DNA of 64,000 bases, taken from assembly GCF_932526225.1 (NCBI RefSeq), contig NC_064037.1:3248996-3312995 (forward strand), read 5' to 3'. This DNA is from Nematostella vectensis. Lineage: Eukaryota. Position 1 is the first letter of the stretch, and every line of letters starts with the position of its first letter. Of this stretch, positions 16,925-50,900 are shown piece after piece. The position numbers and the translations under genes were made by a program. Under the pieces are notes generated by a model that was not told the DNA's origin, ran no database searches, and was given only the letters and a program-made list of their open reading frames with translations.

Positions 16925-17140
16925 TTTCAAACAGAAAACATCATCATCATTATCATCATCACTTAACACAGCAACTTCACTTTTCACCCATACCACCATC
17001 ACATGGTCACACCATTATCATCATCATCATCATCATCATCGTCGTCGTCGTCGTCGTCATCATCATCATCATCACAAACACAGCAACATCGCCATTCACC
17101 CATACCACCATCACATGGTCACACCATTATCATAATCATT

Positions 17141-17171
<31 letters not shown>

Positions 17172-17760
17172 CTTAACACAGCAACTTTATTTTTTACCCA
17201 TATCACCATCACATGTTCACACCATTATCATCATCATTATCATCATCATCATCGTCGTCGTCGTCATCATCATCACAAACACAGCAACATCACCATTCAC
17301 CCATACCACCATCACATGGTCACACCATTATCATCATCATTATCATCATCATCACTTAACACAGCAACTTCACTTTTCACCCATACCACCATCACATGGT
17401 CACACCATTATCATCATCATTATCATCATCATCGTCGTCGTCGTCATCATCATCACAAACACAGCAACATCACCATTCACCCATACCACCATCACATGGT
17501 CACACCATTATCATCATCATCATCATCACTTAACACAGCAACTTCACTTTTCACCCATACCACCATCACATGGTCACACCATTATCATCATCATTATCAT
17601 CATCATCATCATCATCATCGTCGTCGTCGTCGTCATCATCATCATCATCATCACAAACACGGCAACATCACCATTCACCCATACCACCATCACAGTCACA
17701 CTATCATCATCATCAGCAGCAGCAGCAGCAACAACAACAAAATTATCATATAGCAAAAAT
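16925..17760. repeat. Compound trinucleotide minisatellite ((CAT)n/(CGT)n/(CAG)n embedded in an about 140-bp higher-order repeat x6)
   Basis: Unit cacttaacacagcaacttcacttttcacccataccaccatcacatggtcacaccattatcatcatcat...cgtcgtcgtcgtcatcatcatcacaaacacagcaacatcaccattcacc. It is the source of the His/Ile-rich spurious ORF 16759..17829. Confidence 0.9.
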
Positions 17761-19521: not shown

Positions 19522-20928
19522 ATGTTTTCCTTTAAGAAAAAGGACAAGGACAAGGCCGGAGAAACCAAGGAAGAGAGAAGAGAAAGGAGACGAAGGGAGA
19601 AGGCTGAGAAAGAAAAGCTGAAGTTGGAGAAACGAGCGCAAGTGATAGCTGCTCAAGAACCGGCCATTTCTGATATCGTTGCAGGTAGTGGGAACGAGGA
19701 GGATAAAAAGGGCGCTGGGAGGTTTAGTTTCCGTAAACGTAAATACGATGTTGATCACGAGGTAGATAGCAACAACCCATCGCCTTCTTTGGAGCGGGCT
19801 GAGTTTTTAAATCGCGAGAGTCGATCGGGTAGTGACTCCGGGAGCATCGGGGCAACACGGTATAGGACAAGTGGGGACAGAGATTCGAGTTTGGACAAAC
19901 TACACGAGAACAACACACACAACGGTGGTTTTGCTGATCATAGGGACGGAGCAGAACCAGTTGCCAAGCCTCGAACACATAGAAAGAGCTCTAAGACATC
20001 AAGTCTTGATATTAAATTGAAAAACGGCAGCCGTGGGAGTGAGAGCGGAGAAGACGGTCAAGATACTATGAGTTATACCTCTGACAGATCTGACAGTGTT
20101 CAGGGTAGAAACAGGGATGATTCCTTCTCGAGGGGACGAAATTTCGAAGGAAGTACAGCTTTTGCTTTATCGGGAACACCCAAGAAGGATAGCATTAAAC
20201 GCGAAGCCCCAGCAAACCCACCTCCGAAACCTCCAAGAGTTGTTCAACCGGATGAGAGTGGAATGGTTGAGCTAAAGTTTATAAATGCCGGTGGATCACG
20301 AAGGACACCCAGACACGAACAGGAAATAAAAGTTTCTAGTTCAGTTAATTCTTACTCTGCACCTCCCCAAGATCTAAGTTTTATGGATACATCGATGGAA
20401 AACAAGCCAATTTACGATGAGAAGGTTTCGCGTGAGTATGCGGACGGTGTGTATTCGCAGCCCGAGGTCCTTGTATCACCAACTGAGAAATCGTTTGAAA
20501 GTCTCGGAGTGGATTTGCAACTACCAGAAGTTGTGCCAGCTAGTCCAGGGGCTCCTAGAATTATTCGAATTAAACGTAGATCCAGCGGTGACTTCGGCTT
20601 TGCTCTGCGAAGGGGTACAACTCCCGGGAGAGGGGACAAAACAGTGCATTTTGTTGAACCAGTTGGTCCAAACACGGTGAAGGGTATTTTACCAGGAGAT
20701 CGACTTATCGAGGTCAATGGCACGAATGTTGAGGACATAGACAGAGAGAAAATCATCGAAATGATCGCCATGTCAGGCGAGGAAGTTGTCATCAAGGTTT
20801 TGCCGGTTTCGGAGCTTTCAGAATTGAGCGTAAGAAGCGGTTTAGATGGTTCTTTTATCCAACTTGATGACTCGAATCTCAAAGCTGGCACGCTACAAAG
20901 AAGTGGCTCCAAGAGAATGAAGAAAAAG
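19522..20928 (+). CDS. MYO18A: MYO18 exon 1: start codon, KE-rich region, Ser-rich linker, PDZ domain (469 codons)
   Basis: ORF 19522..20952. Donor AAG|gtacgt at 20929. PDZ core [10 protein letters not shown]...[13 protein letters not shown]. Confidence 0.9.
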
Positions 20929-23900: not shown

Positions 23901-26900
23901 AGACATATTTATGACCTCATTGTGACATCATAGTTGATTCAACCACACCCAAAATAGGGCATGACAATTCTTTGCATGCTGGTGATCATTGTCTTTAAGT
24001 TTGATGGTCATAGCCTAAATGGTTCATGAAATACAGAAGGGAGGCTTTTTTAGCTCCCCTCCAGTCACAGACAGCTAAAAAAGCCCAGTCTGAATAGGGT
24101 TAAAAAACAATTTGTTCTACCTTTCTTTATTTTTATTTTCTTTTGATATTAGCTTTATCACTTACTTATACTGTAGTTGTCTTTTTTCCCTTTATTTACA
24201 GTAGAGCCAATTTGTTGATTTATATGTGACCAACCCAATTATTATTGCCCATGAGGTACATTAACTAGGCAACCCAACTGTGTAAAGGTCCACCTTTCAG
24301 GCGTTATCAAGCTAACACAAATATTGGATAGGCCCTTCAAGTAATAGTTAACCCCAAAGTCCTTGAACCCCATAACAGTTTTACTTTGATACACCAACGA
24401 GATAACAGCTTCTTAATCTAAGCATCATGACATTTGTGGCAAAGGTTAACCTAATGAACTGTCAAGCCAATCTATTGTGTTGTACTCGAACCAACAAGTT
24501 TCAGCATGTTAATGAAATAGGTTTATCTGAAGCACTGATGAAAATTCTGGTTTGCAAAAATCACTAAGTTTTGACTTTGAGAATTTGAGACTAGTCACAT
24601 TAACCAATATTCACAAGTAAACTTCAAAAAAATCAGTTTTGCTTTTGATCCTGCTATTATGATTCTTCAGTCTGTGCTAGAAAGCCAGGAGTATTTCAGT
24701 TTTTGTTGACTCTATAATTCTGAAGACTGTAGCTATGCAAGCAACGATTTTCATGACATATTGTGAAAAGGTACTGTACCAAATTCTAAAAATCACTGAG
24801 CACATGTATGCTACATTTATTGATAGCTCATGTTATTGTACCATTGTATTATTACAACAGTGGTTTGTTATTGTGACCTTTAAATATTTTTGAATGTGTT
24901 ATTTAAATGTGTTGGGTTTATGGGTTTAATTTTTGATAACCATGACTTGAGCAGTGATAAAAGCTTCCAAAACATCCTTTAAGGAAATAAAGCATATTAT
25001 GCCAGGTTTTTATTTTCAAATTTTAATTTTACATTGTTGTACTACTTTTGAAAAAGGTTGCCAGAAAAAAAAATGCCTTAAAACTTTTTTGTTTTCAAAA
25101 ATATAGTGTAGTGAATGTCATAAAGTAGCTCAATAATAGCATAGTTTAAGCACTCAGTTAATCAGTTCTACCTATTTACTGTGAACTGCTCCTTTGGGTT
25201 CCTTTTTCTTTCTTTCGAGCCGTTCTACATAGTTCTATTTAAAAAGAGTAGGAGTATGTGTGTGTAGGAATTCATGTTTATAGTATTAATCTTTTTATGT
25301 CAGGTCAAGCAATAGTGTAGACTCCATTAACCCAAAATAAATGAGCATGTCTATTTATTAATCAACTTATCTGTCTGTAAATCACCTAGCCTAGACAAAA
25401 AGCAAAATAAATAAAAAAGAAATATGTTAAGGTTCAGGTAAGCAGTTCTTAGTTAGGAAAAGAATGAAGTTTTTCCTGCAAACCAAAAGACAATAATGAA
25501 TAGGAACTGTTTCAGGAAAAATACTTTGTGTGATGTTTTTATAAATATTACACAAGAAAGCAGAAGTCAATAATTGTAATAGATTGTAGAGTGTAATTTG
25601 TCATTAAAAATACTTAAACATGACTTACTTTTTATCACATTTGAAATTATTCAAAATAGTTAGCGGTCCAAGTCCAAGTTTAGTGGATTATTCTGCAGTA
25701 CCCTTATTCATGTATGAATTATTCAACCACTGAGCAGTAGTAAACTAGTGTCACCTTTAACCAGGGGCTTTCCTGGACCATTTGTGTCACCTTTACCAAG
25801 GGCTTTCCTGGACCACTTGTGTCACCTTTACCAGGGACTTTCCTGGACTATTTGTGTTACCTTTGCCAAGGGCTTTTCCTGGACCACTTGTGTCACCTTT
25901 ACTAGGGACTTTCCTGGACCATTTGTGTCACCTTTACCAGGGGCTTTCCTGGACCATTTGTGTCACCTTTACCAGGGGCTTTTTTAGACCATTTGTGCCA
26001 CCTTTACCAGGGGCTTTCCTAGACCATTTGTGTTACCTTTGCCAGGGGCTTTCCTGGACCATTTGTGTCACCTTTACCAGGGACTTTCCTGGACCATTTG
26101 TGTCACCTTTACCAGGGGCTTTCCTGGACCATTTGTGTCACCTTTGCCAAGGGTTTTCCTGGACCATTTGTGTCACCTTTGCCAAGGACTTTCCTGGACC
26201 ATTTGTGTCACCTTTACCAGGGGCTTTCCTTGACCATTTGTGTCACCTTTGCCAAGGGCTTTCCTGGACCATTTGTGTCACCTTTGCCAAGGGCTTTCCT
26301 GGACCATTTTGAGCTCCAAGCCTGCCATTTAAATTTTTGGTCATTCTGGTGTATTTTGGTATATATATTTTTTTGCCTTTTAAAGAGATTAAAAAAAACT
26401 GGTTATGCCTTGGCTTGTGTATTGAAGGCAGTTAGGCCCGTGGTTTACAACCAACATTTTGTGTTGTGAGATATTTCTGTAAAAATCCCAATGCCCAAAT
26501 GTCTTTGTTTCATCTGTAGCCCAAGTCTGTGGAGGAGGTGGCATCAAACAAGGCGTGGCATGATGCAGAGAAGGTGTGGGTGGTCCACAAGGCAGGGTTC
26601 TCAGGTGGTAGGGTGCTGCGCTTAAAGCCGTCAGAGGGTGCTAATGAGGATGAGATGCCCATGTGCCAAGTCAAGCTGGACCATGGAGGGGAGCTCATTA
26701 CTATTGAGGAGGAGAACATTGAGAAGGTGGGTATAGAAAAAATATAGTTTTTTTAATCTGCTAGATTTTGCGGGCTTTGTGGATTTTGTTGGGGGAAAAA
26801 GCCTGCATACCCAAAATATGAAAGGGGAATACAGAAAAAAGAGCTGGCAAATGCAAGAGAACAGCCGGCTGCTATTTTGAACTCTGTGAGTGTTACCTTT

Positions 26901-29900
26901 TTAAGATTGGTACATAATGGGTGGGGGACAAGAGCGGAGGGGGGGTGTCTTTTCTTTATGACGAAAAAGATGTACACTTTATAAAAACTTGACTGTTCTA
27001 GGGACACTAGTGAGTGATGAAATTGGTTTAATCTCATGCTAAATGCAATGCCACAAATCCTAAAAATCCTACTGATCTTGTGGGTTATCAACCACAATAA
27101 CCATAATCATCAATTTGTTATAGAGATTGCTTTGTTTATATTGTTTTGCATACTGTATGACAATCTTTTAAAATGATTTTGTTTATACATCTTTATTTGA
27201 AGGAAGGTGGTTTTTAGATTTTTATGTATGTGTAAGTGTGCACTTCAACTAAGGCTCAGTGCAATGAAAATTTGAGCTGTGCAAGTTAAATACCAAAACT
27301 GTCTGCACATGTGGCTAGTATAAATCATGAGCTTTGAGCCCTAGGTTGACATCGTTTAACCCTCCTGATGTGACGTGATACCTTGTATTTGCAGGCCAAC
27401 CCTCCTCAGTATGATAGAGCAGAGGACCTTGCCACCCTGCGCTACCTTAACGAGTCCAGCTGCCTTCACACCCTGCGTCAACGATATGGAAGTAACCTCA
27501 TCCACACTTACGCCGGACCCAACATGATTGTCATCAACCCCCAGCAGCAGCTTGCCATCTACACTGATAAGGTAAAGTAGCAACTTGCCATCTACACTGA
27601 TAAGGTAAAGTAGCAACTTGCCATCTACACTGATAAGGTAAAGTTGCAACTTGCCATCTACACTGATAAGGTAAAGTAGCAAACTTGCCATCTTCACTGA
27701 TAAGGTAAAGTAGCAAACTTGCCACCTACACTGATAAGGTAAAGTAGCAAACTTGCCATCAACCCTGATAAGGTAAAGTAGCAACTTGCCATCTACACTG
27801 ATAAGGTAAAGTAGCAAAATTGCCATCTACACTGATAAGGTAAAGTAGCAAACTTGCCATCTACACTAATAAGGTAAAGTAGCAAACTTGCCATCTACAC
27901 TGATAAGGTAAAGTAGCAACTTGCCATCTACACTGATATGGTGAAGTAGCAAACTTGCTATCTACACTTATAAGGTAAAGTAGCAACTTGCCATCTACAC
28001 TGATAATGTAAAGAAGCAAACTGAGCAGCTAGAAGCAATTCCAAGAAGTGCAGCAACTTATTCTATGCAAGATCAAATAAACTAGTTCCCTGGCTATCTT
28101 CTTCCCCAGGAACCAACATCTTACAATAATACCTCGAGTTTTAATAAGTAATAGTTTACCCCACAATGTGTTATTCTCCAAGCATCATGATCCCATTATT
28201 GCTAAGGCCTAATATAAACAGCGTTCTCTTCATGTGCTGTTCCAAGTTAAAGTATATGCAAATGAAGATAAAACAACCAACTTTGTTCATTTGCATGTAT
28301 TTGAATTTGGAAGAGTACGTGAAAAGAATGGTATCTAAACTATGCCTAAGTGTTGTGAAGCTTCCTTAAAACTGTGTTAAGCTCCCTTACAGGTTATCCA
28401 GATGCCCTGATGTCATAATGACATCATATTGTGTTGCTATGGCAACACAATATATCATTTTGTTCCTCTTTGTCAGATAATGATTCTTTGAAAATTTGGT
28501 CATAATTGCTCCAATGGTTCAAAAGTTATGGATGGGGGGGGGGGGGGGGGGGGGAGCGCAAGAGCCCCCCAGTCTGAATAGGGTTAAAACTAACTGTGTT
28601 AAGCTCCCTTACAGGTTATCCAGATGTTCCGTGGATGTAAGCAGGAGGATATGCCACCACACATCTTTGCCACAGCCCAGACGGCCTACCGCAACATGCT
28701 CGCAACCAGGATAGACCAGTCTGTGGTGCTGATGGGGTCTAGTGGATCTGGAAAGACGACTTGCGCAAAGCATATCCTCCACTACCTCTCATCGATAGCT
28801 GGCTCTTCTCACTCCCCTGTCACAGGTAACACTGCTATAATTTGGCACATGTCCCCGTTTATTCCTGCTTATAAATATATACCCTTGTATGCCACACCTC
28901 TCTCTGAGAGTCATGTTGACTTGAATCAATGATATACCACTCCTATCTCCTCCTTCAATGCCCACATTTTCTTATAAACAATTTCTGCTTTTGTCTTTCC
29001 AGATCAAAATTTCGAAGGGATCTTTGCACTGTTAGAGTCATTTGGAAATGTGCAGACCATTTTGAACAGGAATGCCACCAGATTTACACTTCTTGTGAGT
29101 CTAGACTTTGATTCAGCAGGAGGACTGACTTGCGGATCCCTGCAGGTAAGCTTGCTTGTCATGCCTGTGGAAAAAAGAATATGTGGAATTGTTGTGGTAG
29201 TGCTAGGAGAATGGTATTGACAGGTGGTGTGCCACACACCTGGTAACATAAGAGGTATAGCGGTGCTAGGTGTAAATAACTAGGACATGAGTTGGAGGGC
29301 TGGCTTGCACGACCTTTCAGATTAGTCATAGTGCAAAAGGAAATGTGATATGTAAATAACAAATAACATCCTTAAATAAAGGTGCAAGTTATGGTGTATA
29401 CAGATAGAGGCCTAGTACTTATGGACCCTTGGCTTATCTACTTGTTTTTCAGACATTTTTGTTGGAGAAATCACGGGTTGTTCGGCAAAAGGAAGGCGAA
29501 GGGACTTTCAACATATTCTATTATCTGTTGTCTGGCAGCGACCCAAAGCTAAGGTAACTAAATGCACAATAATGTACAGTAAGTACATTTGTGAGCCTTC
29601 TGCATGCCTTGTTGGAATCAGTAAATTTAGGATTTTACCCTTTTTTAAATTTGCATAGTCAGTTTTAGCTTGACATTTTGTGTGGGAAAAGTCTGGTAAT
29701 GGCCTTTAAAATTCTCTTTTTCCCCTCGAATTCTCTAAAACATAGATGCCAACCCCCGAAGTTCCAAATCAGATTTTTTGGAGAGTGGAGTTTTATAGCT
29801 TTTTTTATAGCTTCTATATTTGCAGAAACGCGACAACCAGTTTAAAGATTACCACGCATCTTTAAATTTTTCTGAAAATGCATCAATAGCTACGCATTGT

Positions 29901-32900: not shown

Positions 32901-35900
32901 ATCCATCTTCCCGGGCGCTAATGACAGCAGCTTCTTGGCCAGACTCTACGTACACCACTGCAGCGAAAGTGAGTACTTAAGAAACGGCTCTTTGAATCAG
33001 AGTGAGTACCCAAGAAACGGCACTTTGAATCAGAGTGAGTACCCAAGAAACGGCACTTTGAATCAGAGTTTTACTCAATTGTTTCCAACTTCCCCCCTTC
33101 ACCTCCCCCATACCTCCCAAAAGAGGCCAGATACTTTCATCCTCACAAGGAACCCTCAAAGAAATGACATCCATTGCAAAAATATCTAAATTGTTGTCGA
33201 GCGCCGGTAAAGTAAAGCATAGAAGTGAGCGCGGTGGAAGACTAAGGCTTATCGCAGCAATTGAGAAAATATGTTGTCTGCACATGGCTTTCGTTGGGAA
33301 TCTCGTAATAATACCCCCACACTTCTAAATCAAGATTTTTCTTATCCCGAGTTTAATTTGAAGGGCTGGACACTGAAATTTTAACGGAAACGTTCGAGAA
33401 AGGCCTCTCAACCCTCGGGGATGCTGTTGTGTAATCGAGAGGAGTCCTGGGTAAACCAGGGTATATAACCCTCGGGGTTACTGTTGTGTATTTGTAGAGG
33501 AATCCTGGGTGAAGCAGGGTCCGAAAAAAGACACGTTCTACGTAAATCATTGCCAAGGGACGCTTCCTGTGTTGTATAACGCGCAAGGCTGGCTCAAACT
33601 CGCGAGGGAGAACGCCACCACGAAACAGGCGCGAGGCATCCTCGCGGACTCCACCAAGTGAGTTTCTTTACATTTAGCTTAAGCACCGAAAAATGTAACA
33701 GAAGAGCTGATATATATATATGTTTTGAAAATACCAGGTGGCTTCGTCGGCTTGCTAACTTTTAATGTAAAAAATTGAAAAAAAAAAAAGATGTTTGACG
33801 CTTGCTAACTTCACAAATCAGGGATAAAACCGCTATATGGTCATTTTTTTCTACGATGTTACTAAGTAGAAACCTTGTCGATTAGTTATAGCCTTTCTGG
33901 TAATTTTTGAGCATTTTCTTGTTGGCCACGGTAGCCCGCGGTTTAACCGCCAACTTTTTTGAAAATGTTTTGTTTTCTTATCTTCGTAGGAACTCGGTGA
34001 ACAGTTTATTCTCTCAGCGCAACACCGCTGACAGTATCTCGAGGTCCCGCAGTTTCAAACGCGCCACCATGAGCCCTCCGACCGCCATTAAGAAAAACTC
34101 GCAGTGTCTGCAACTCATCTATCAAGTGGTGAGTTGTACACAACACAACCACGTACTAGCAACACGATCATGTACGGGGGACGACATCGCTCGATACAAC
34201 CACGCACTAGCAACACGATCATGTACGGGGGACCACATCGCTCGACACAACCACGTACTAGCAACACGATCATGTACGGGGGACCACATCGCTCGACACA
34301 ACCACGTACTAGCAACACGATCATGTACGGGGGACCACATCGCTCGACACAACCACGTACTAGCAACACGATCATGTACGGGGGACCACATCGCTCGACA
34401 CAACCACGTACTAGCAACACGATCATGTGCTGGGGACCACATCGCTCGACACAACCACGCACTAGCAGCACGATCATGTACGGGGGACCACATCGCTCGA
34501 CACAACCACGTACTAGCAACACGATCATGTACGGGGGACCACATCGCTCGACACAACCACGCACTAGCAACACGATCATGTACGGGGGACCACATCGCTC
34601 GACACAACCACGCACTAGCAACACGATCATGTACGGGGGACCACATCGCTCGACACAACCACGCACTAGCAACACGATCATGTACGGGGGACCACATCGC
34701 TCGACACAACCATGTACTAGCAACACGATCATGTACGGGGGACCACATCGCTCGACACAACCACGTACTAGCAACACGATCATGTACGGGGGACCACATC
34801 GCTCGACACAACCACGTACTAGCAACACGATCATGTACGGGTGACCACATCGCTCGACACAACCACGTACTAGCAACACGATCATGTACGGGTGACCACA
34901 TCGCTCGACACAACCACGTACTAGCAACACGATCATGTACGGGGGACGACATCGCTCGACACAACCACGTACTAGCTACACGATCATGTACGGGGGACCA
35001 CATCGCTCGACATAACCACGTACTAGCAACACGGTCATGTACGGGGGACCACATCGCTAGACACAACCACGTACTAGCAACACGATCATGTACGGGGGAC
35101 GACATCGCTCGACACAACCACGTACTAGCAACACGATCATGTACGGGGGACCACATCGCTCGACACAACCACGTACTAGCAACACGATCATGTACGGGTG
35201 ACCACATCGCTCGACAATCACGTACACACACAATCCCGTACACGCAACCCTATCACGCACACAGCCAACACGCAACAGCTATCTAAAGATTTGCCCCTTT
35301 CCCATAATCTATAAACATAAAGCTAATTAATCAAGTAGTGATTTGCACGCAACACCTTAAAAAGTGGGCTTAACCAATATGCGCAACACAACCACGTGCG
35401 CACAACCGAAACGCAACAGCCAACCCTCCCATGGTATTTGCTATTGGTGAACGGCAACACCACATTATATGGACAGGCAGTTTGGGGAACTCATTCTAAC
35501 GGCAACCATATGGCGTTTTTTAAACAATCCATCTAAAACCAAGCAAAACAGGGGCTCTCTCGCCCATGAAGTTGTTGTCTATTTGTTTTTGGTCACTATA
35601 TGCTTTTACTGTAATAGCTAAGGATCGAACAAACAAATAAATTGCAAATTGGCAAAGCAATTTTAGGAAATATAGAGAGAGAACTAAGAGATGTGACCAA
35701 GCTCGATTACGATACACGGCCATACGTATGAACACGACCATCAGCCGAACATACACTACACATGCGCAAATGAACCGAACATGCACTACACATGAGCAAA
35801 TGAACCGGACATACACCACACATGCGAAAATGAACCGAACATGCACCACACATGCGCAAATAAACCGAACATGCACCGCACATGCGCAAATGAACCGAAC

Positions 35901-38900
35901 ATGCACCACACATGCGCAAATGAACCGAACATGCACTACACATGCGCAAATGAACCGAACATACACTACACATGCGCAAATGAACCGAACATGCACTACA
36001 CATGAGCAAATGAACCGAACATACACTACACATGCGAAAATGAACCGAACATGCACTACACATGCGCAAATGAACCGAACATACACTACACATGCGCAAA
36101 TGAACCGAACATGCACTACACATGAGCAAATGAACCGAACATACACTACACATGCGAAAATGAACCGAACATGCACCACACATGCGCAAATGAACCGAAC
36201 ATACACTACACATGCGCAAATGAACCGAACATGCACTACACATGAGCAAATGAACCGAACATGCACCACACATGAGCAAATGAACCGAACATACACCACA
36301 CATGCGCAAATGAACCGAACATACACTACACATGAGCAAATGAACCGAACATGCACTACACATGAGCAAATGAACCGAACATACACTACACATGAGCAAA
36401 TGAACCGAACATGCGCTACACATGAGCAAATGAACCGGACATACACCACACATGCGAAAATGAACCGAACATGCACTACACATGAGCAAATGAACCGAAC
36501 ATGCACCGCACATGCGCAAATGAACCGAACATGCACCACACATGCGCAAATGAACCGAACATACACTACACATGCGCAAATGAACCGAACATGCACCACA
36601 CATGCGCAAATGAACCGAACATACACTACACATGCGCAAATGAACCGAACATACACTACACATGCGCAAATGAACCGAACGTGCACCACACATGCAAAAA
36701 TGAACCGAACGTGCACTACACATGCGAAAATAAACCGAACATGCACCACACATGAGCAAATGAACCGAACATACACTACACATGAGCAAATGAACCGAAC
36801 ATGCACTACACATGAGCAAATGAACCGAACATGCACTACACATGAGCAAATGAACCGAACATACACCACACATGCGCAAATGAACCGAACATGCACCACA
36901 CATGAGCAAATGAACCGAACATTACACATGAGCAAATGAACCGAACATGCACTACACATGTGCAAATGAACCGAACATACACTACACATGCGCAAATGAA
37001 CCGAACGTGCACCACACATGCAAAAATGAACCGAACGTGCACTACACATGCGAAAATGAACCGAACATGCACCACACATGAGCAAATGAACCGAACATAC
37101 ACTACACATGAGCAAATGAACCGAACATGCACTACACATGAGCAAATGAACCGAACATGCACTACACATGAGCAAATGAACCGAACATACACCACACATG
37201 CGCAAATGAACCGAACATGCACCACACATGAGCAAATGAACCGAACATTACACATGAGCAAATGAACCGAACATGCACTACACATGAGCAAATGAACCGA
37301 ACATGCACTACACATGCGCAAATGAACCGAACATACACTACACATGCGCAAATGAACCGAACGTGCACCACACATGCAAAAATGAACCGAATGTGCACTA
37401 CACATGCGAAAATGAACCGAACACACATCACACATGAGCAAATGAACCGAACATACACTACACATGAGCAAATGAACCGAACATGCACTACACATGAGCA
37501 AATGAACCGAACATGCACTACACATGAGCAAATGAACCGAACATACACCACACATGCGCAAATGAACCGAACATGCACCACACATGAGCAAATGAACCGA
37601 ACATTACACATGAGCAAATGAACCGAACATGCACTACACATGAGCAAATGAACCGAACATGCACTACACATGAGCAAATGAACCGACCATACACCACACA
37701 TGAGCAAATGAACCGAACATACACTACACATGCGCAAATGAACCGAACATGCACTAAACATGCGAAAATGAACCGAACATGCACTAAACATGCGAAAATG
37801 AACCGAACATGCACCACACATGCGCAAATGAACCGAACATGCACTACACATGCGCAAATGAACCGAACATGCACTAAACATGTGAAAATGAACCGAACAT
37901 GCACCACACATGCGCAAACGAACCGAACATACACTACACATGCGCAAATGAACCGAACATACACTACACATGTGCAAATGAACCGAACATGCACAACACA
38001 TGCGCAAATGAACCGAACATGCACTACACATGCGCAAATGAACCGAACATGCACTACACATGCGCAAATGAACCGAACATGCACTACACATAAGCAAATG
38101 AACCGAACATACACTACACATGCGCAAATGAACCAAACATACACCACACATGCAAAAATGAACCGAACATGCACTACACATCCGCAAATGAAGCGAACAT
38201 GCATTACACATGCGCAAATGAACCGAACATACACTACACATGCGAAAATGAACCGTCCGTGCACTACACATGCGAGAATTAACAGAACGTGCACCACACA
38301 TGCGCAAATGAACCGAACATGCACCACACATGCGAAAATGAACCGAACATGCACCACACATGCGCAAATGAACCGAACATACACCACACATGCGCAAATG
38401 AACCGAACATACACTACACATGCGCAAATGAACTGAACATGCACTAAACATGCGAAAATGAACCGAACATGCACCACACTTGCGCAAATGAACCGAACAT
38501 GCACTACACATGCGCAAATGAACCGAACATGCACTAAACATGTAAAAATGAACCGAACATGCACCACACATGCGCAAATGAACCGAACATACACTACACA
38601 TGCGCAAATAAACCGAACATACACTACACATGTGCAAATGAACCGAACATGCACTACACATGCGCAAATGAACCGAACATGCACTACACATGCGCAAATA
38701 AACCGAACATGCACTACACATGCGCAAATGAACCGAACATGCACTACACATGCGCAAATGAACCGAACATACACTACACATGCGCAAATGAACCCAACAT
38801 GCACTACACATGGGCAAATGAACCGAACGTACACCACACATTCGCAAATGAACCGAACATACACTACACATGCGCAAATGAACCGAACATACACTACACA

Positions 38901-41900
38901 TGGGCAAATGAACCGAACGTACACTACACATGCGCAAATGAACCGAACATACACTACACATGCGAAAATGAACTGAACATACACTACACATGCGAAAATG
39001 AACCGAACGTACACTACACATGCGCAAATGAACCAAACATACACTACACATGCGAAAATGAACTGAACATACACTACACATGCGCAAATGAACCGAACGT
39101 ACACTACACATGGGAAAATGAACCAAACATGCACTACACCTGCGCAAATGAACCGAACATACACTACACATGCGAAAATAAAACGACGTGCACCACACAT
39201 GCGAAAATGAAACGACGTGCACCACACATGAGCAAATGAACCGAACATGCACTAAACATGCGAAAATGAGCCGAACATGCACTAAACATGCGAAAATGAA
39301 CCGAACGTGCACCACACATGCAAAAATGAACCGAACGTGCACTACACATGCGAAAATGAACCGAACATACACTACACATGCGCAAATGAACCGAACATCC
39401 ACTACACATGCGAAAATGAACCGAACGTGCACCACACATGCAAAAATGAACCGAACATACACCACACATGAGCAAATGAACCGAACATGCACTACACATG
39501 CGAAAATGAACCGAACATGCACTACACATGCGCAAATGAACCGAACATACACCACACATGCGCAAATGAACCGAACATGCACTACACATACGCAAATGAA
39601 CCGAACATGCATTACACATGCGCAAATGAACCGAACATACACTACACATGCGAAAATGAACCGTGCGTGCACTACACATGCGAGAATTAACCGAACGTGC
39701 ACCACACATGCGCAAATGAACCGAACATGCACTACACATGCGAAAAATGAATCTTTTGTTTGCTATTTTAGGACACTCTCCTCGACGCTATCCGTAAAAC
39801 CAAAGTGAACTTTGTGCGCACAATACTGCCTGTATCAACCGCTGGCCAGACTGACATCACGGATCCCATCACTAAGGCCAAGGTCTCCAAGGAGATGGCT
39901 ACCCTTGACGTGCCCATGGTGCGGCAACAACTGCGGTCAGCGGAGATGCTCGATGCTGTCAGGATACACCGTCAAGGTAAGTATTGTGTGGGGGTGGGGT
40001 GGGGGGAGGGGGGGAGGAATGACACAGGTGTGCTTCTTATGGTGTATGTTGCGAGGCAGGGCCTGATTGATGGTAAGCTGGGGGCTTGATACCCTTGGTA
40101 CCAGAGCCTCCAGACTTCTCGCACCCAGTGGCGCTCTCGCATTTTGGCTAAGCGTCACTGGACGAGAGAAGTATGGAGGCTGTGGTACCCAGGGTAGGGA
40201 ATTGATTGGTAGATGGAGGTTGATTTGTAGGTATAACCTGTGTCATGGTTGGATGAAAATGTCAAAAATATAAAAAAAACCTGGGTGATAGATATGAATC
40301 CTTCTCCTTTGTTCTAGTAGAACAACTGTAAGGTTTTATTTCGATGTCTGAAACCCCTAACTGTTTAAAACGCATGATATGACATGAAAATACTATAAAG
40401 CTAATTGCGTTTATGCTGTTATAAATGACTAAAAATCACGCTTATGTTTGACAATGGGAGATGGATTGTAGCGCGGCGCTAAGAACTGACACCCAGTCCT
40501 TCCCGGTCTTAAAACAACTCGTAGCAAAGACAAGGTGAATGCAAGGTCACGCTAGTGCGAGCTAGCATTTCAGCACCTGAGCACCAACATAGATATTACA
40601 AACATGGCATGACCATCTAGCCAAGGCTTGTCGAGCATGGGGGCTCCTCGGTATGACTGCGATCAGCTATCATGTGCAATCGAACCTCGCAAGCCGTAGA
40701 CGCAGCGTCAAAGGCTTTCCAGGTACCCTCGCCCTGCCGTACTTATAAACTTCCTAGAATTATGTCTAAGAGCAATGACCATGAATAGCGTTCTAAGAAG
40801 ACTAAATAGCAGATCTCACATCAACGTAGAGATGTTTCTATTCTCAAGTGTTTGTAAACATAATAGTATTTCTCCAATTAACAAGTGGTTCTACGTGGCC
40901 GGTATTACTGTTACCAAGGTGTTATCAAAGGGTCATGGGAATGTATTTGTCTCACGCAAACTGTACGATTTGAGTTAGACATTCGTCTTTTGTAGATCCT
41001 ACCAAACCATTCTAGCTTTGAGTTAGTTTAGTTTTTATGCATAAAATCAAAGCAAACTAAAACAACGATTGTAATAATCTCTTGGAACAATAGGTATTGT
41101 TCGAAGTAGTAAATGTCGAAGTAGTTTGTTAAGCACTTTAAGATTGGTACTTATCTCTGATTGCCGTCTTTATTGCATGGTGAAACTACTGTATAGTACC
41201 TTAGAGACCGACCAAGCTACAAATATTTCCATTTATTTATCCATAAAAAACACCAAAGATTCCCAAATATCTGTCCGGCCCAAGAAAAAGTTTTCCGCGC
41301 GAAATTTTGTTATGCAAATACAACGTGCGCAAACAACGTGTGTTGTCTTATAATAAAGTTGTGTATCAATTTATATATAGAATTTACTTAGCTGACGATA
41401 TGTGAAAAATTGAAAGTGGCGTTTTGTTTATTATATTTACTGGTACGTAACTAAATGTCATCTTTTGCAGGTGTTATTTTAACTATTAGACTGTTTAGAA
41501 TAGTCCGTACCCCTAAAAGTACCCGTTACTCTCAAATAAAGTAAAACCGCTAACTTTTATGACAAGAAACACTACCTACATCTAGGAGCCTTGTAGGTAA
41601 ACACTCCTTTGTCTCAACACGAAGCACCGCTGATTCCATCGTCTGCAGTCGCAGTCCATTGACTTCAACAGGCTTCATTATTCAGGCGTAAAACTTTGTA
41701 GCCGAGCGCATCAGACTTGTTTGTTTACCTTGCGTATAGCACTGACTGTTTACTCTGGCCTGGGCCCAGAAGTGGTGTGATTGAATCGCCGAGCAAGACG
41801 CAGTGTCCGTTGAAGCCTCGCTACTGTTTCCTTTTTTTGTTGGGGATTTCTACAGTGCGTATCTCAACCCACAGGTGAACCTGGACATGTAGGGAATTTG

Positions 41901-44900
41901 GATTGTGCCTTCAGCTTAAAGTTTTATTCGCAATCTTCGACTCATCGTGGTACAAGCCGACAACAGAGGGCAAAGTTTCCAGAACTAGAGTTCGCTGCAC
42001 GTGGAAACAGTCAGTGGTTATTTGAAGGCTTATGAATGGGGCATGGGTGTACGTAGCGGTGATCTGACAACTACTGAAGATATGAGTTGTAACAATCAGG
42101 GCCTTTTTGGTTGGCGCCATGAAACCCGTGTTTTACTTATTGTGCAAGCGACACAGCTCAAAACATTCCAAGTACCAGGTTCGTGTTCGCGTTAGGGAAG
42201 TTTGAAGTCACAGCAATGGGAAAAAATTATACCGAGCTCAAATTTACTTTGTTTAGGAACTTTTCCTTGCGCGATTAAGAAATACTTACCTAATTGAATT
42301 TGATTAAATTCAACACAATGTCACTCAAAATTATTAAAACGGTTCATTTAAATGTGTCAACCTCTTTTATTCGGAACTGCTAAAGGAATTTTAATGCCAA
42401 GACAAACACTGAAGTCAAAAACAATTTCTTGTGTGTTTTTATCCTACTAAACAGAGGTGTGTAATTCTCGAGAAATACTTGTTATCCTGCAGGTCTTGTT
42501 TTCTTTTCTTAGATTTACGGTCGAGTTGGGTATTTATGGAAGCTAAGTAGGTTCGCAATATTAACCATTTGAGGTATAGATATATCATCAAATGCATGAA
42601 ATTCAAGGAGTATTTGCTAAAGTTCAAGGTCAATTTTAAAGTAATATTTCTACTGAACGCCCGCAAATTGCCACTTGGTTGGTTTTAAAAGGTTTTTAAT
42701 ATTCATTGCTGAACAATAACTGATATTGTACTGTGCTTGACAAGTGCACCAAGAGTTAATGAGGACAACGAGAACAAAAAACTCTCTCTTTGAACAGTTA
42801 ATATCCTTGGTAATATTCATTCTTTATATATATACGAATATATACGAATAAACGAATGTTAATTGATCCATAGCATGACTCGAATGACTCGGTGCTTTTC
42901 GTGTGCGTGACATACCGCCATTCTCACCGATAACTAGACGGTCAGATAACGCGCGCGGTGATGGAATTGTGTATTTTAAGTTATCTTTACATTCGCGCAT
43001 TTTAAATGTATACAAAAAAGCCTAGAAATTCCAACACTCCTGTGGTGAGTAATCATGTGGCGGACTCCCTCTCAGGGTTGGGTTTGCCCTGTCTTATTAT
43101 CTCAGTATGTAAGCTCAGTAAGGATGCAGCAAGGGACGGGAATATTTTTATGGTCTTTTTGGAGAGGGGTTTGTATAGGAAATTGCTTTATGGGGGGGGG
43201 GGGGGAGGATTTGATGAAAAATATCCTTTCCTAATATGTCTTCCTCCCACAGGCTTTCCGGAGCACATGCCGTTTGGGGAGTTTCGGCGAAGGTTCGACG
43301 TGTTGGCGCCTGTGCAGTACAGGACCAGCGCAGGACCCGTGCTGGACGAGAAAAAGGTATCTCCTAGAAAACCTTCAAACTTGATACAGTCGAGAAAAAG
43401 GTATTTCCTAGAAATCCTTCCAAACATTTTACGGTCGTGTTATCCTTTATACAGGAACCAGGTCTGGATAAACTCTAATTTTGCTTAGTTAAACGAAGTA
43501 ATTTTATCGAAACTCAGTATTAACCGTTCAGTGGTAAATACTGCGATTTAGCCATTTATGTAATGTGCTATAAGTCTCTTAGCATTTAGTGGTATTTAAT
43601 TTGCTATTAGACCATTAGCATTCAGTGGTATTATATTCATGTTATGTGTCTCCAGGGCGTGGAGCTGTTGCTGAGCCATCTGGAGTTGGATCAGAGGAGC
43701 TACCGACTTGGACTTAGTCAGGTATTTTAGACGGCTTTTCTTCTGAGAAGATTTTGTTGCTGTGTTTTTTAGCGCTCTTTTGGTATGACTGTTAGCGAAA
43801 AGTAAACAAATAAGGATCCCGTTAAACCGAATCTATGAAGAAAATAGCAATGGTACAATTAGCAAGAAGAGAGAGTTGATTTGGAAAAGGAATCAACTGT
43901 TCAGCAGTCTCTATGTATTCATGAGTTACTCCCTTCGTTCAACCTATGTCAAGCGGCTGTTTATTATTTTCTTGGATTTACTCCTAAGTTTGTATATTTA
44001 TGGCGTGGATCTTGTTTTGGGCTTGTTCTCTGGCTCTAATCATGCGACTTTTATTATTGTCTTTGAATTAATTGATACGTTTGATTCCTGCATTGCGTAG
44101 ATCTTCTTCCGCGCGGGTTCGCTGGCACAGCTCGAGGATGCTCGCGACCAGAAGACGACAGGTACCATCGTCGAGTTGCAAGCTTACTGCCGCGGCTTCT
44201 TGGCCAGAAAACGACTCAAGAAGTTACAGGTAATGTGCAGCTTCCCCCCCATCCTCGATAGTCTCCTACGCAGACGCTCTGCCACGCGAAGTTTTGGGAG
44301 TCTGTGAACTGTACGATTATTCGGAGACGTCGGTGGCAACGCGAACAGAGCGAGGGAGATGGGCTGGGGGAGGGGGATGTCGGGGTAGAAATTCTTCCCT
44401 GTTTCAATCACAAATGTTGTTTATAGTTTGCTAAGAAAGCTAAAGCGCTATTATGTTCTGATTAAAATCTTTTCTCTTTTGTTTCCAGGTTCAGAACAAG
44501 GCCATGATATGTATCCAGAGAAATATTCGTAAGTTCATGGCTGTCAGGAGCTGGTCCTGGTGGAAGCTGTACACAAAGGTTAGTCACACAACCCTTCCCT
44601 CGGACTGATCTCGCTAGGGCCGACCCCAACCCGAGAGCATCTCGTACTGATATCGTTATCGCTGACCCTATCCCGAAAACATCTCGTACAATCTCGTTAT
44701 CGCCGACCCTATCCCGAAAAAAACTCGTATAGATCTCGTTATCGCCGACTCCATCCCGAAAACATCTCGTACTGATCTCGTTATCGCCGACCCCACCCTG
44801 AAAACATTTCGTACAGATCTCGTTATGGCCGACCCCATCCCGAAAACGTCTCGTACAGCCCTCGTTATCGCCGACCCCATCCCGAAAACATCTCGAGGCA

Positions 44901-47900
44901 ACCCCGATCATAGTGTTCGTTCGAATTGCTTGCAGGTTTTGCCTCTCTTGAATGTCCACCGCACCGAGGAAGAGCTCAAGTCTAAGTCAGTAAGTATCGT
45001 ATGACTAGAAAGACGGCAGATACAAATATCTAGTTGGCTTACGTAGGCGTGGTTGAATGGTGGGGAAAAGAAGTTTCAAAGAAATTTCTAACATTAGCCC
45101 TTCACTGGAACAGAGCCGACGAAGGGCTAACGCTCTAAGTGTCTGCGAAACTGCTCTTTTTACAGGAGGCGTTAAACGTACCACTTCAGCCTTGTGTTGA
45201 GCTCTTTCTCTTAGATTGGCTATGTTGATGATAATGAAATAAATCTCAAAACATTTTCACACCAGGCTATTTTTCTCAATAGTTTTCAATTTTCTCGATA
45301 GTTTTCAATTTTCGTGTTAACATCGTTCGGCTATTTTGCTCGATAGTTTTCAATTTTCGTGTTAACAGCGTTCGGCTATTTTGCTCGATAGTTTTCAATT
45401 TTCGTGTTAACAGCGTTCGGCTATTTTGCTCGATAGTTTTCAATTTTCGTGTTAACAGCGTTCGGCTATTTTGCTCGATAGTTTTCAATTTTCGTGTTAA
45501 CAGCGTTCGGCTATTTTGCTCGTTAGTTTTCAATTTTCGTGTTTACAGCGTTCGGCTATTTTGCTCGATAGTTTTCAATTTTCGTGTTAACAGCGTTTGG
45601 CTATTTTGCTCGATAGTTTCCAATTTTCGTGTTAACAGCGTTTGGCTATTTTGCTCGATAGTTTTCAATTTTCGTGTTAACAGCGTTTGGCTATTTTGCT
45701 CGATAGTTTTCAATTTTCGTGTTGACAGCGTTTGGCTATTTTGCTCGATAGTTTTCAATTTTCGTGTTAACAGCGTTCGGCTATTTTGCTCGATAATTTT
45801 CAATTTTCGTGTTAACAGCGTTCGGCTATATTGCTCGATAGTTTTCAATTTTCGTGTTAACAGCGTTCGGCTATTTTGCTCGATAGTTTTCAATTTTCGT
45901 GTTAACAGCGTTCGGCTATATTGCTCGATAGTTTTCAATTTTCGTGTTAACAGCGTTCGGCTATTTTGCTCGATAGTTTTCAATTTTCGTGTTAACAGCG
46001 TTCGGCACTTGATCGTGTCGTTTAAGCACTGTGAAAACATTCCCACCATAGCGCTATTTATCCATTATTTCCACCATAGCGCTATTTATCCATTATTTCC
46101 ACCATAGCGCTATTTATCCATTATTCCCACCATAGCGCTATTTATCCATTATTTCCACCATAGCGCTATTTATCCATTATTTCCACCATAGCGCTATTTA
46201 TCCATTATTTCCACCATAGCGCTATTTATCCATTATTTCCACCATAGCGCTATTTATCCATTATTTCACGTATGCATTGTTGTGTATCTTTGCGCGCGTA
46301 TACTTTAGTTAATTACAATTCACCCTCCCTCCCTTAGGGCGAAGTTGACATCCTGAAGGCGAAGGTCGCGAGGCTGGAAAACGAGAACAAAGAGCTGAAC
46401 GACGAAAACATGAAGCTCGAACAAAAGGTATGGTTTCCATGGAAACTGTTGCTAAGGTAGACAAAATTTGCCTGAAACTCAAATAGTTGCCGGATATCAT
46501 TTTGAAACCAGCTTATACAATGCTATGAAACACAAAGGTGTTTCGCGTTCCGATTTCATTGTTTCCCAATTTGAGTTTGACTCCTACCGAATAGAGCGTC
46601 GACCGTAGGCGAGGTGAAGTCAATTTACTGAGTGACTCCTTTTATCCCTCACTAGTCAAAACAGCGATTGTAAATATGATCAACCAATCAAAAACGTCAC
46701 ACGACTTGGGTACACGGCCAATCAGAGTTTGCGTATTACGGGCTTCCGCTTCCAGTATATGTATATAAATAACACTTCTCAAACAAAACCCGACGCAGAA
46801 TAAAATTTACCCCGCTTTATCTCGAATTTGGCGTTCATAGTAAGGCGACTTTTGAATGGTTTCCCCGGCTTCTGGGCGGTGAGTTTAGAAAATATTACAA
46901 CTAGGTGCAATACAAGGATGAAATCTGACAATGTCAATATGTGAAGACTCTTTATTCTTGGCGTCAATTGCGCTTGTTGGGCCAAATAGTGTGATTTCGT
47001 TGGTATTCTATTATTAATTGGGTTCTTAATTTTGTGGTGGGCTGTTGAGTAAATTTGTTAAAATATATATGTTTTGTAGCGAGGTCTGGAGTAAAGTATT
47101 TGTTTAAGTTGACATTCGTAGCAAAGTTAAGGAAAGTTGCGTTTTTATGTTTTACGAAATCTTTTTCTTTTGACACAGGAACCACAATCATCTGTGCCCC
47201 AAAAAAGAGGGAGTGATCTCTTTTCTGTACATAATTTCTCTTTAGAAATATGGGTTCTCCTTTTCAGCGCAGAAAATATTTTTTTCCAGACGCTTTATTC
47301 CTAAACGTATTTGAATAATGATGTTGGCTAGATTGTCTCTTTTCATGTGATCATTTCACAAACACGTGGCCGCTGCACCTGTGCCTCGCCTGAGTCGTTG
47401 CCTTTTAACAGCGTTTGGTCAGCTGCCATTATAAAAGCCACTCAGTCATATGAAGTATCCAATTGCATCGAGCGATCTGTGAGTTCCGGTGCATCATTAA
47501 TTTTTTTTTTTACCCATAATACCTCCATGATTTTTTGTATCGCTCGCAAATTCTTTTTTCTCTGTTAGAAATACACTTTTTTCCTTGTTAGAGAAACAAA
47601 GTTGTTTTAGAAAAACAAAGTTATTTAGCTTTTTTAGAGCATAGAACAGCACGCTCTCGTAATGAGAATATTAAAATCTTGAGAATCTTGTCCGGTAGGT
47701 GTCCGAATTATCGGTCCAGCTGTCCGAGGATCGCGCCGCCGCCAACCATGCGAGCCAGATGCTGGAACAAGAGACCATGGAGAGGATGAGACTTGAGGTG
47801 CAGCTACAAGAGATACAGGTAAAACCCGATTACCCAGTCAAACTGGTTATGAAATACATATTCCTTATAAGCACCTGTAAGACCTGAGGTGCGGCGTCAA

Positions 47901-50900
47901 GAAATACAGGTAAAACCCGATTACCCAGTCAAACTGGTTATGAAATACATACCCCTTAAAAGCACCCATTACACTCAAAAAGAGAGCTCTCCCATATGTC
48001 AATGTTTTCGTCACTTTTATATGTTATCCTTACTTTGCACTTTTCCCCGCCCTGAGTTAATTTTCTCGAGAAGTCGGAAAAAAACTAAACAGTTATAAGG
48101 TCAGATCTCTTCTCTTTGCTATTACGATACGTTTTGCTGTTACGAAACTATTATGATGCGTTATGCTGTTGTGAGAGTCTCTAGATCAGAAGAACAGATC
48201 CCTCTCCATGTTGCACTGATCCTTTACTATACACATCTATTGCAGGAGTCTCTTGACGAGATCAAGAAGAAGAAAGAACAGCTGGAGGTCGAGCTGCTTG
48301 AGGCCAAAGCGCTCGTGTCCACTTCTGCGCGGCGGGGAGAAGCACGACTACTTCAGGCTGAGAAGAGTGAGAGGTTCGCGGGAGAAGGTGCCTCTGACGA
48401 TGAGGACTTTGAAGAGGAAGGTAAAGGAACGCAGTACTAGGGCATGTACTACATCTTACAATAGGACGACATCCCCTGCGGGCCTCAAGAAGAAGTCTTC
48501 ACGTCTTGCTCAAAAGAAGGAGGATATGAAACTACTGCTGGAAGAGTTATTTACTAAAAATTACCCCAATCCAACGATACATCCCAATATTGTCATATAA
48601 AACAAATTCATCTACCGACTAGGCATTGCGTTCGGCAAGTTAAGAGGGTGTGTTGTTTAAGGTTAATTTTTTTATTGCCTCAAAATTATATCGTAAAACT
48701 GTATCATATTATATGATATTTACAAAGCCCCATGCCATGCGTCATTTTTCTTTAGATTGTGTTACATCCTGTGTTTTGCATAGAGCACTCTTACTGAATT
48801 CCATGAATGAGTGAGGCGTGACAAGGTGTTTGTATTGCGTTACAGAGGAGTACTACCGTGAACGTTACCTCCAGGCGTCACGCGAGCATGAGCAACTGCG
48901 CAAAAAGCTCCAGAGTCAAGCTGAGAAGGAGATGGAGGAGGTCCTTAACCAGAAGAGAATCGTAGAAAGAAAGGTGCGCACAAATCTTAAAATCAATATT
49001 ATTTATTGTATATTGTTGTCGGAATGCAGAATAGCGTTCTTAGTGTTTTGCTAATATTGTATCAGTCTGTTTGTAACCCTTTCATTCCCAAACTTCTTTA
49101 GTTGGCAGAGGAGCAGTCAGAGAATGACGAGCTCCATCGCCAGATGGCGGGCCTCAAGAAGAAGTCCTCACGTCTTGCACAGGAGAAGGAGGATATGAAA
49201 CTACTGCTGGAAGAGGAACAAACCAGAAACACAGACCTCGAGAAGAAACAGAGAAAGTAAGTTAACCCTAACAAAATCTAGTAGGATCTCCTGAGAAGCA
49301 GACGTTTCTATGTTGAGCTACTCCAGAAATCACTGTTTAGGGCACACATTTTTGTTTCTGACCTATAAAACAAACATGTGCTCTAACTATAAATAAGATT
49401 CGTTAATGTTTCTAAGCTCAGCCACCCACGAAAATGTTGTTCGGGACCCAAGAAATGTTTCTGTCCTGTTTCAGAGCCATGGGGCATTCTTGCTTCAACT
49501 TATTCGTCCTCTGACAAAACACTTATAAACGAAATAAACAGATGTAAAGAAAACAAACATCTCAACCTTTTATTTTATTTTAAGGTTTGACATTGAATCG
49601 AATCACATGAAGCAGGAAGTCGAACATGAGCGAATGCTGAAGGATAAGATCAATCGCGAGAAAAAGAAATTCCAGGCAGACAAATACCGTCTTGAGCAGG
49701 AGCTGGATCAAGTCCAGGAAGACCTGGACCGCGCTACCAAGGACAAGCACAAGCTGGAGCAAGACCTGCTGGAGTTTTCCAAGGAACCGGGCGGCGAGGT
49801 TAACGCTGATGTAGGTCTTACCTCCTTCTGTAATTTATATGCGCGCTAGGTTGCACAAAAGGCTGTGACACGGGTGGCCTGCACTGTCCCCTTACGCCTC
49901 CAGATGTTCAAATACTTGCTGAAGTTGAAGTCTTGTGTCTTAAAGCTGCTTTACACTAATCCCAAGCAAGGAATGTAGAAGGAAAATTAGTCGGGGGTTT
50001 GATAAACTCCTGGCAGTTAACACCTTTTATGTCACTGCATATTTACAATATATACATGGGGTACGGTAATTTAAGTTCGTTGTGTTGTGACTTCAGCCTT
50101 GTTGCCTAGGCATATTATTAGAGCTTGCCCACCTTAATCTTGTTCATTATCTTGTCGCAGGCCGTTGCTCTGAAGCGCCAGATCCGCGAGCTCGAACAGA
50201 AGGTACAAGACCAGGAGGAGGAGTTGGACGAACAGGCAGGGCAGATCCAGATACTGGAACAGGTACGTGTTAGACCCAGTAGTATAGAAATAAGGATAGG
50301 TGTGTGTTAGACCCAGTAGTATAGAAATAAGGATAGGTGTGTGTTAGACCCAGTAGTATAGAAATAAGGATAGGTGTGTGTTAGACCCAGTAGTATAGAA
50401 ATAAGGATAGGTGTGTGTTAGACCCAGAAGGGTAGACCCAGAAACAAGAATAGGTGTGTTATACCCAGAAGGGTAGATACGGAAACAAGAATAGGTGTGT
50501 TATACCCAGAAGGGTAGATACAGAAACAAGAATAGGTGTGTTATACCCAAAAGGGTAGACCCAGAAACAAGAATAGGTGTGTTATACCCAGAAGGGTAGA
50601 CCCAGAAACAAGAATAGGTGTGTTATACCCAGAAGGGTAGATACAGAAACAAGAATATGTACTAAGTACGTTTGACCTTTTCTCGCTTTTGTTTTAAACC
50701 TTTTCCAAAACTATCAATCCATAACGATATTGATGAGTAATACAGAAGTTGAGTTGTTTTGTTCACTTGGTGATACCAAACTTTGTACCCTTGAATGGCT
50801 GCGTATTGACTAACACACCGCTTTCCCTTGAATGGCTGGCTCTAATGCCTTGACTTACCCGTTTTCAGACGAAGTTGCGCCTGGAGATGGCTGGCGAGCG

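Follow-up and report, generated by a model that had tools for sequence, protein, structure and literature searches.

How does a transcript find the correct 5′ splice site when that site has been copied, many times over, into the intron that follows it? The question is raised by a 64-kb stretch of Nematostella vectensis DNA (contig NC_064037.1, positions 3,248,996–3,312,995 of the forward strand; hereafter the window, to which all coordinates refer), in which an exon of a class XVIII myosin gene ends inside a minisatellite. The first monomer of this array spans the exon–intron junction and holds the authentic donor, and 13 further monomers carry copies of the same region into the intron. The reading that we favour, and to which we assign a probability of about three in four, is that this is an intronic minisatellite with a boundary-spanning first monomer, whose first donor is used almost exclusively and which is a near-neutral or mildly deleterious by-product. 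The genome would on this account make minisatellites at a very high rate, and the array would be no device specific to this exon.

The gene is that of a class XVIII myosin, recognized by its PDZ, SH3-like and motor domains and its coiled-coil tail, and its earlier naming as MYO18 was therefore correct. The motor domain scored 216 bits against the Pfam family Myosin_head; the match to SH3_Myosin-XVIIIa was weak (21.3 bits, below the 27-bit cut-off). Regular expressions for myosin motifs matched the P-loop only, leaving the other motifs unmatched, and the exons were mapped instead with two spliced contigs from relatives, L005 and L010. L010, a 1475-aa transcript-like homologue in which Pfam recognizes the PDZ, SH3-like and motor domains ahead of a long C-terminal region, is collinear with the plus strand from the PDZ exon (20506–20841) to position 49257, and coiled-coil open reading frames (ORFs) run on from there to a stop near 57273. 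Two parts of this homologue are unmapped, some 210 N-terminal residues and residues 321–357. The exon that ends in the array had been called exon 3, and it is the third exon recognizable in the window; with N-terminal parts of the homologue unmapped, its true number is probably higher.

The limits of this exon were placed by tblastn and blastn comparison with orthologous loci. It opens at the acceptor tttgcag/GCC and closes at the donor AAG/GTAAAG (a slash marks the exon–intron boundary), the last exonic nucleotide being 27571 and the first intronic nucleotide 27572. In 20 orthologous loci from environmental assemblies, with 69–95% amino acid identity, the exon ends at the same codon in every case, and no end elsewhere was found. 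Two of these loci, the spliced contigs L005 and L010, agree, joining TDK directly to VIQMFRGC, which corresponds to 27571/28615. Both the exon end ...GATAAG/GTAAAG and the next acceptor at 28615 are thus where they had been proposed. The exons are open and conserved, and exon B shows 93–95% protein identity at ∼81% DNA identity. Because the exons stay open and protein identity exceeds DNA identity in exon B, we conclude that the gene is under purifying selection. Exact records of the ORFs covering the exon at 27395–27571 and the next exon were absent from the assembly and transcript collection, and a homology search with the window sequence gave no 100% match.

Tandem Repeats Finder (TRF) describes a head-to-tail array at 27551–28022 with a period of 34, 14.1 copies, 92% matches and a score of 811; a period of 135 fits slightly better. 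The 27-mer GCCATCTACACTGATAAGGTAAAGTAG occurs 14 times in it with at most two mismatches (0 expected, from 100 shuffles), and a pattern search at the same tolerance found it nowhere else in the 64-kb window. The duplicated unit consists of 21 nt of exon end and 12–13 nt of intron start. The donor at 27572 is the authentic one, and the other 13 donors of the array are pseudo-sites inside the intron. Successive donors are spaced by 33, 33, 33, 34, 34, 34, 33, 34, 34, 34, 33, 34 and 33 bp, the difference in length being that between GCAA and GCAAA. As a result of this mixture, copies 1–4, 7, 8, 11 and 12 are in the phase of the exon, seven of them being among the 13 extra copies. The 9-mer AAG/GTAAAG is kept exactly in 11 of the 13 extra copies, giving 12 intact donors with the authentic one; the degenerate donors are ATG/GTGAAG in copy 12 and AAT/GTAAAG in copy 14. 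The TAG that follows the donor is likewise kept in 11 extra copies, copy 3 having TTG and copy 14 AAG. Exact copies of the 33-mer account for four of the extra monomers, while the remaining nine carry one or two substitutions each.

The original prediction had described a 13-fold amplification of the exon donor by a uniform 33-bp unit, faithfully reproduced, with every donor in phase with the exon and a TAG after each GTAAAG. The array itself, its start in an authentic exon-end monomer and the number of 13 extra monomers are borne out by TRF and the per-copy listing. The uniform unit, the general phasing, the exact reproduction of the unit and the universal TAG are not, as the counts above make plain.

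The position of the first TAG determines what any mis-splicing would yield. Translation past the first donor reads ...IYTDKVK and then stops, whichever downstream donor is used or if the intron is retained. Truncation after K-V-K on read-through had been foreseen correctly; the further suggestion, that use of downstream donors would insert 11-aa repeats, fails, because the in-frame TAG of copy 1 precedes all the other donors. Use of the most upstream donor would leave the coding sequence unchanged, only monomer 1 being joined to the exon. Leakage to a downstream donor, or retention of the intron, would give ...TDKVK and a stop, and nonsense-mediated decay would be the probable fate of such products.

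The sequence of the extra monomers gives no sign that their donors have been under selection of either kind. Compared with the consensus, 17 of 429 positions differ (∼4% divergence), and these are spread across the unit; the donor 9-mer has three of the 17, against an expectation of 4.6. Dispersed in this way, the substitutions point neither to conservation of the pseudo-donors nor to their specific inactivation. Taking duplex energy with the 5′ end of U1 as a measure of donor strength, the predicted pairing of the intact 9-mer is −7.9 kcal/mol, which is mid-range, as four other donors of the gene lie between −6.5 and −11.8 kcal/mol. Site-based scores, MaxEntScan included, cannot separate the intact donors from one another because all 12 have the same 9-mer. 

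Two other accounts of the array were considered and rejected. A coding or small-RNA role finds no footing, as the minus-strand ORFs are repeat artefacts, no Rfam family matches anywhere in the window and the folding of the array is not unusual (minimum free energy z = +0.52 against shuffled controls). A transposon-borne satellite that merely resembles an exon is also rejected, as the unit occurs at a single site in the window and its exonic half consists of the conserved codons LAIYTDK, present once in all relatives.

The repeat was absent from the orthologous junction in all 20 of the loci compared, each of which has a single donor followed by an unrelated intron start. It follows that the array, recent and not conserved, belongs only to the lineage or individual from which the window comes. 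The unit is bounded by GCAG/CTTGCC upstream and GCAAA/CTGAGC downstream (here the slash marks the edge of the unit). We infer that a short tandem duplication of exon end and intron start founded the array, probably by replication slippage at the GCA(G/A)..CT microhomology, and that it later grew to 14 monomers by unequal exchange, in part through blocks of four monomers (135 bp). Growth by exchange of such blocks is suggested by the length pattern 33, 34, 34, 34, which occurs twice in succession, and by the better TRF fit at 135 bp.

The array had been presented, by implication, as a singular structure. It is not: the layout has been described before (PMC1557585), and at least five other junction-spanning duplications lie in the same gene (Table 1). 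The largest is an acceptor array, whose unit consists of a pyrimidine tract and AG followed by the start of an exon. A coiled-coil exon begins at the last of its copies, TTGTTTTTAG/ATGCAAGTGACGC, which serves as the working acceptor (55235), and the frame there is continuous with the preceding exon (...KKRQD/MQVTRLKEQ); the acceptor array is the mirror image of the donor array. Within the intron that holds the donor array there is in addition a decoy acceptor copy, with its splice site at 28393, 222 nt upstream of the real acceptor, whose use would give VIQMP and a stop. Several other arrays start or end 4–40 nt from a splice site.

Table 1. Positions of the exons, the donor array and the other junction-spanning duplications of the myosin gene.
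Feature	Position	Strand	Basis or description
PDZ exon	20506–20841	+	Pfam PDZ, 40.6 bits
SH3-like exon	26520–26726	+	Homology
Authentic exon, 177 nt, 59 codons	27395–27571	+	Phase 0 at both ends; start of myosin motor domain
Monomer 1	27551–27583	+	21 nt exon end CTTGCCATCTACACTGATAAG and 12 nt intron start GTAAAGTAGCAA; holds authentic donor
Further monomers (13), 33 or 34 bp	27584–28022	+	TRF, per-copy listing, pattern search
Array donors (14)	27572, 27605, 27638, 27671, 27705, 27739, 27773, 27806, 27840, 27874, 27908, 27941, 27975, 28008	+	
First in-frame stop, TAG	27578–27580	+	Translation
Whole intron, 1043 nt	27572–28614	+	451 nt of array, unique sequence, decoy acceptor copy, 187-nt insert
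Decoy acceptor copy, 35 nt	28370–28404	+	blastn 100% to 28592–28626; 23 nt intron and GTTATCCAGATG of exon
Next exon, with P-loop GSSGSGKT, ending SPVT	28615–28825	+	Homology, spliced contigs L005 and L010
Donor A/GTGAGTAC, three times	32969, 33002, 33035	+	33-bp array 32968–33069, 3.1 copies
Acceptor 33498, twice	33410–33520	+	85%-identical copy 58 nt upstream
Donor 43357, twice	43347–43420	+	Recurs at 43401
Donor 47819, twice	47789–47966	+	Recurs at 47910; 91-bp duplication
Acceptor array, 34 bp, 29 copies	54263–55247	+	Unit of 21 nt intron end and 13 nt exon start

Further features of these repeats may be recorded here. The 187 nt between the decoy acceptor copy and its counterpart at 28592–28626 include a run of 25 G residues and a short palindrome, and the stretch resembles an insertion flanked by a long duplication. 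The triple donor at 32969, 33002 and 33035 is in phase with its frame open, so that splicing from the second copy would lengthen the motor domain by 11 residues, and from the third by 22, without introducing a stop. The arrays at 50267–50657 and 52875–53542 start 4–5 nt into their introns, and the 37-bp unit at 50267 may include the donor, the native ACAG/GTACGTGTTAGA comparing with ATAG/GTGTGTGTTAGA in the unit. An intron of ∼5.6 kb is almost entirely minisatellite: 21 copies of a 51-bp unit (34143–35216) start 9 nt after the donor, and 134 copies of a 30-bp unit (35745–39751) end 20 nt before the acceptor. A 69-nt piece of the coiled-coil exon at 49102–49257 recurs in the upstream intron, 669 nt away (48478–48546 against 49147–49215, 94% identity), and could be a decayed exon duplicate. 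In a distant relative (L016, 1–264), part of the SH3-like exon lies in a 179-bp tandem duplication, which 26536–26600 of the window matches twice. Upstream of the mapped myosin exons, 16939–17715 is a CAT/CATCAC-rich compound repeat with 180-bp higher-order units and a strong GC skew.

The abundance of repeats is a property of the region as a whole. The window holds 34 TRF rows scoring at least 150 and, by self-comparison with blastn, 25 local direct-repeat clusters in 64 kb; in the gene, between 20.5 and 49.3 kb, 27% of bases lie in arrays. Applied to 61 kb of the relatives' orthologous DNA, the same method found two clusters; this DNA is made up of short-read contigs, which under-represent arrays. 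Within the gene, an unbiased self-comparison gave 16 local-duplication clusters, six (perhaps seven) of which contain a working junction. Under a null model of random (uniform) placement of one founding unit per cluster, 1.28 such clusters are expected (P ∼6e-4, or ∼4e-3 if the donor array that was flagged at the outset is set aside); for arrays of three or more copies, three contain a junction against 0.73 expected (P = 0.03). The test was devised after the pattern had been seen and is helped by selection preserving the native copy, and for these reasons we treat the apparent junction-anchored excess, the one point out of the ordinary at this locus, as suggestive. That splice junctions in this genome are favoured sites for the seeding or retention of tandem duplications and minisatellites is a possibility of which we are rather doubtful. 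If it were true genome-wide, it would mean either a mutational process coupled to exon–intron junctions or a selection-anchored persistence of arrays, and would furnish dozens of repeated donors and acceptors as a natural panel on which to test splice-site choice.

Which of the identical donors is likely to be used? The closest precedent is the 37-bp variable number tandem repeat (VNTR) in intron 7 (IVS7) of human F7, in which five identical pseudo-sites, although functional, stay silent (Borensztajn et al. 2006, PLoS Genet 2:e138, PMC1557585). In three cell types the most upstream available donor was always chosen there, even when downstream sites had been improved (PMC1557585). Because the F7 minisatellite behaves in this way, we expect the first donor of the myosin array to be almost exclusive: it would serve the great majority of transcripts, perhaps with a small leak to the nearest pseudo-sites. 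Several observations weigh against this reading. With two identical strong donors in HeLa nuclear extract, nearly all splicing goes to the downstream, intron-proximal site (PMC3413131), and under such a rule most transcripts of this gene would be unproductive. The pair of pseudo-sites closest to the authentic donor is constitutively used in IFI6 and CBS (PMC1557585), which makes some leak plausible. The exact array unit had no match (0) in JGI metagenome contigs, and no second assembly was found in the collections searched. Finally, pure neutrality does not explain the excess of junction-containing clusters (6 against 1.28).

The array might, alternatively, be a regulatory decoy, its reiterated donors binding the U1 small nuclear ribonucleoprotein (snRNP) and diverting transcripts to unproductive splicing or intron detention, so that myosin-18 output is tuned through the TAG and nonsense-mediated decay. 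Twelve identical 9-mers with mid-range predicted U1 pairing (−7.9 kcal/mol), an in-frame TAG directly after the first donor and a decoy acceptor in the same intron are what such a device might contain, and the constitutive use of pseudo-sites in IFI6 and CBS gives it a precedent. We consider it unlikely. The array is missing from all 20 orthologous loci; a stop-introducing site, which in a conserved element of alternative splicing coupled to nonsense-mediated decay (AS-NMD) would itself be conserved, is so in 0 of the 20. The pseudo-sites bear no sign of selection, and the TAG is simply the ancestral intron start, copied together with the donor. Moreover, similar duplications at many junctions of the gene follow no common logic, one being in frame without a stop and others shifting the frame.

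A second alternative, that the window carries a hypomorphic or null haplotype in which downstream donors win, as they do in vitro, and most transcripts contain the stop, with another haplotype or a paralogue supplying myosin-18, strikes us as still less likely. Eleven exact competitors within 403 nt of the authentic donor do make such an outcome conceivable. Nevertheless, in vivo minigene data from F7, the closest precedent, show the most upstream site being chosen; the copies have diverged by ∼4% and been reorganized in blocks while all mapped exons remained intact; and the gene would need to tolerate each of at least five additional junction duplications. Silent pseudo-sites fit better than a null allele because the exons are intact and conserved and at least five similar duplications are tolerated. 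That the assembler made the array or inflated its monomer number, the 33/34 difference being homopolymer error, is very improbable: the sole length variation is indeed AA against AAA, and no second assembly was found, but nine of the 13 extra monomers carry substitutions of their own, the pattern 33, 34, 34, 34 recurs as regularly as block duplication would produce, and internal variation of a similar kind is seen in two dozen other arrays of the window.

The locus offers a natural test of whether the rule that the most upstream donor wins, seen in mammalian cells, extends outside mammals. The built-in stop makes any mis-choice of donor easy to score, and the 29-copy acceptor array in the same gene provides the equivalent test for acceptors. 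There is also a caution for annotation, in that, where minisatellites abound in a genome, gene predictors confronted with identical donors or acceptors may choose the wrong one.

The donor array joins a small class of described structures, to which it adds an invertebrate-type example with more exact pseudo-donors (11) than F7. Like the members of that class, it is an array of several copies of units in the 10–100 bp range; the authentic junction, 27571/27572, falls within its first monomer (27551–27583); and its donor is reiterated identically in 11 of the 13 extra monomers, two being degenerate. By these structural criteria (tandem arrangement, junction in monomer 1, reiterated donor) it can be classed as an F7-type boundary-spanning minisatellite. 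The two arrays share a first monomer on the boundary, identical pseudo-donors behind it, a donor of moderate strength and units of similar length (37 bp against 33/34 bp). They differ in composition, the F7 unit having 4 nt of exon and 33 nt of intron in 5–9 monomers, whereas the myosin-18 unit has 21 nt of exon and 12–13 nt of intron in 14 monomers. In F7, moreover, first-site use has been demonstrated experimentally and the array is known to be polymorphic; for the myosin-18 array first-site use is a prediction.

Further human genes in which a minisatellite starts on an exon–intron boundary are IFI6, CBS, LMNB2 and PDGF (PMC1557585). In IFI6 (6-16) intron 2, CBS IVS13, LMNB2 and PDGF intron 4 the donor is reiterated 10–25 times, the same range as here. 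In IFI6 and CBS, however, use of the two nearest pseudo-sites gives in-frame isoforms; in myosin-18 the stop after two codons means that no protein isoform could result. The density of junction-spanning events within the one myosin gene, large acceptor array included, goes beyond the descriptions found in the literature.

Comparison can also be made with models of intron gain or extension by tandem duplication of AG/GT (Rogers 1989; Hellsten et al. 2011, Nat Commun 2:454, PMC3265369), in which the mRNA stays as it was, the redundant copy being removed along with the intron, as would be the case here. The outcome in that model is a new intron within an exon (PMC3265369), whereas in myosin-18 an existing intron has grown longer through repetition of its own 5′ end. 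The competition between identical donors for one acceptor studied by Hodson et al. (2012, NAR 40:6850, PMC3413131) is likewise the situation of the myosin-18 exon. In those artificial two-site constructs, spliced in nuclear extract, the intron-proximal site wins, which is the opposite of what myosin-18 needs in order to function.

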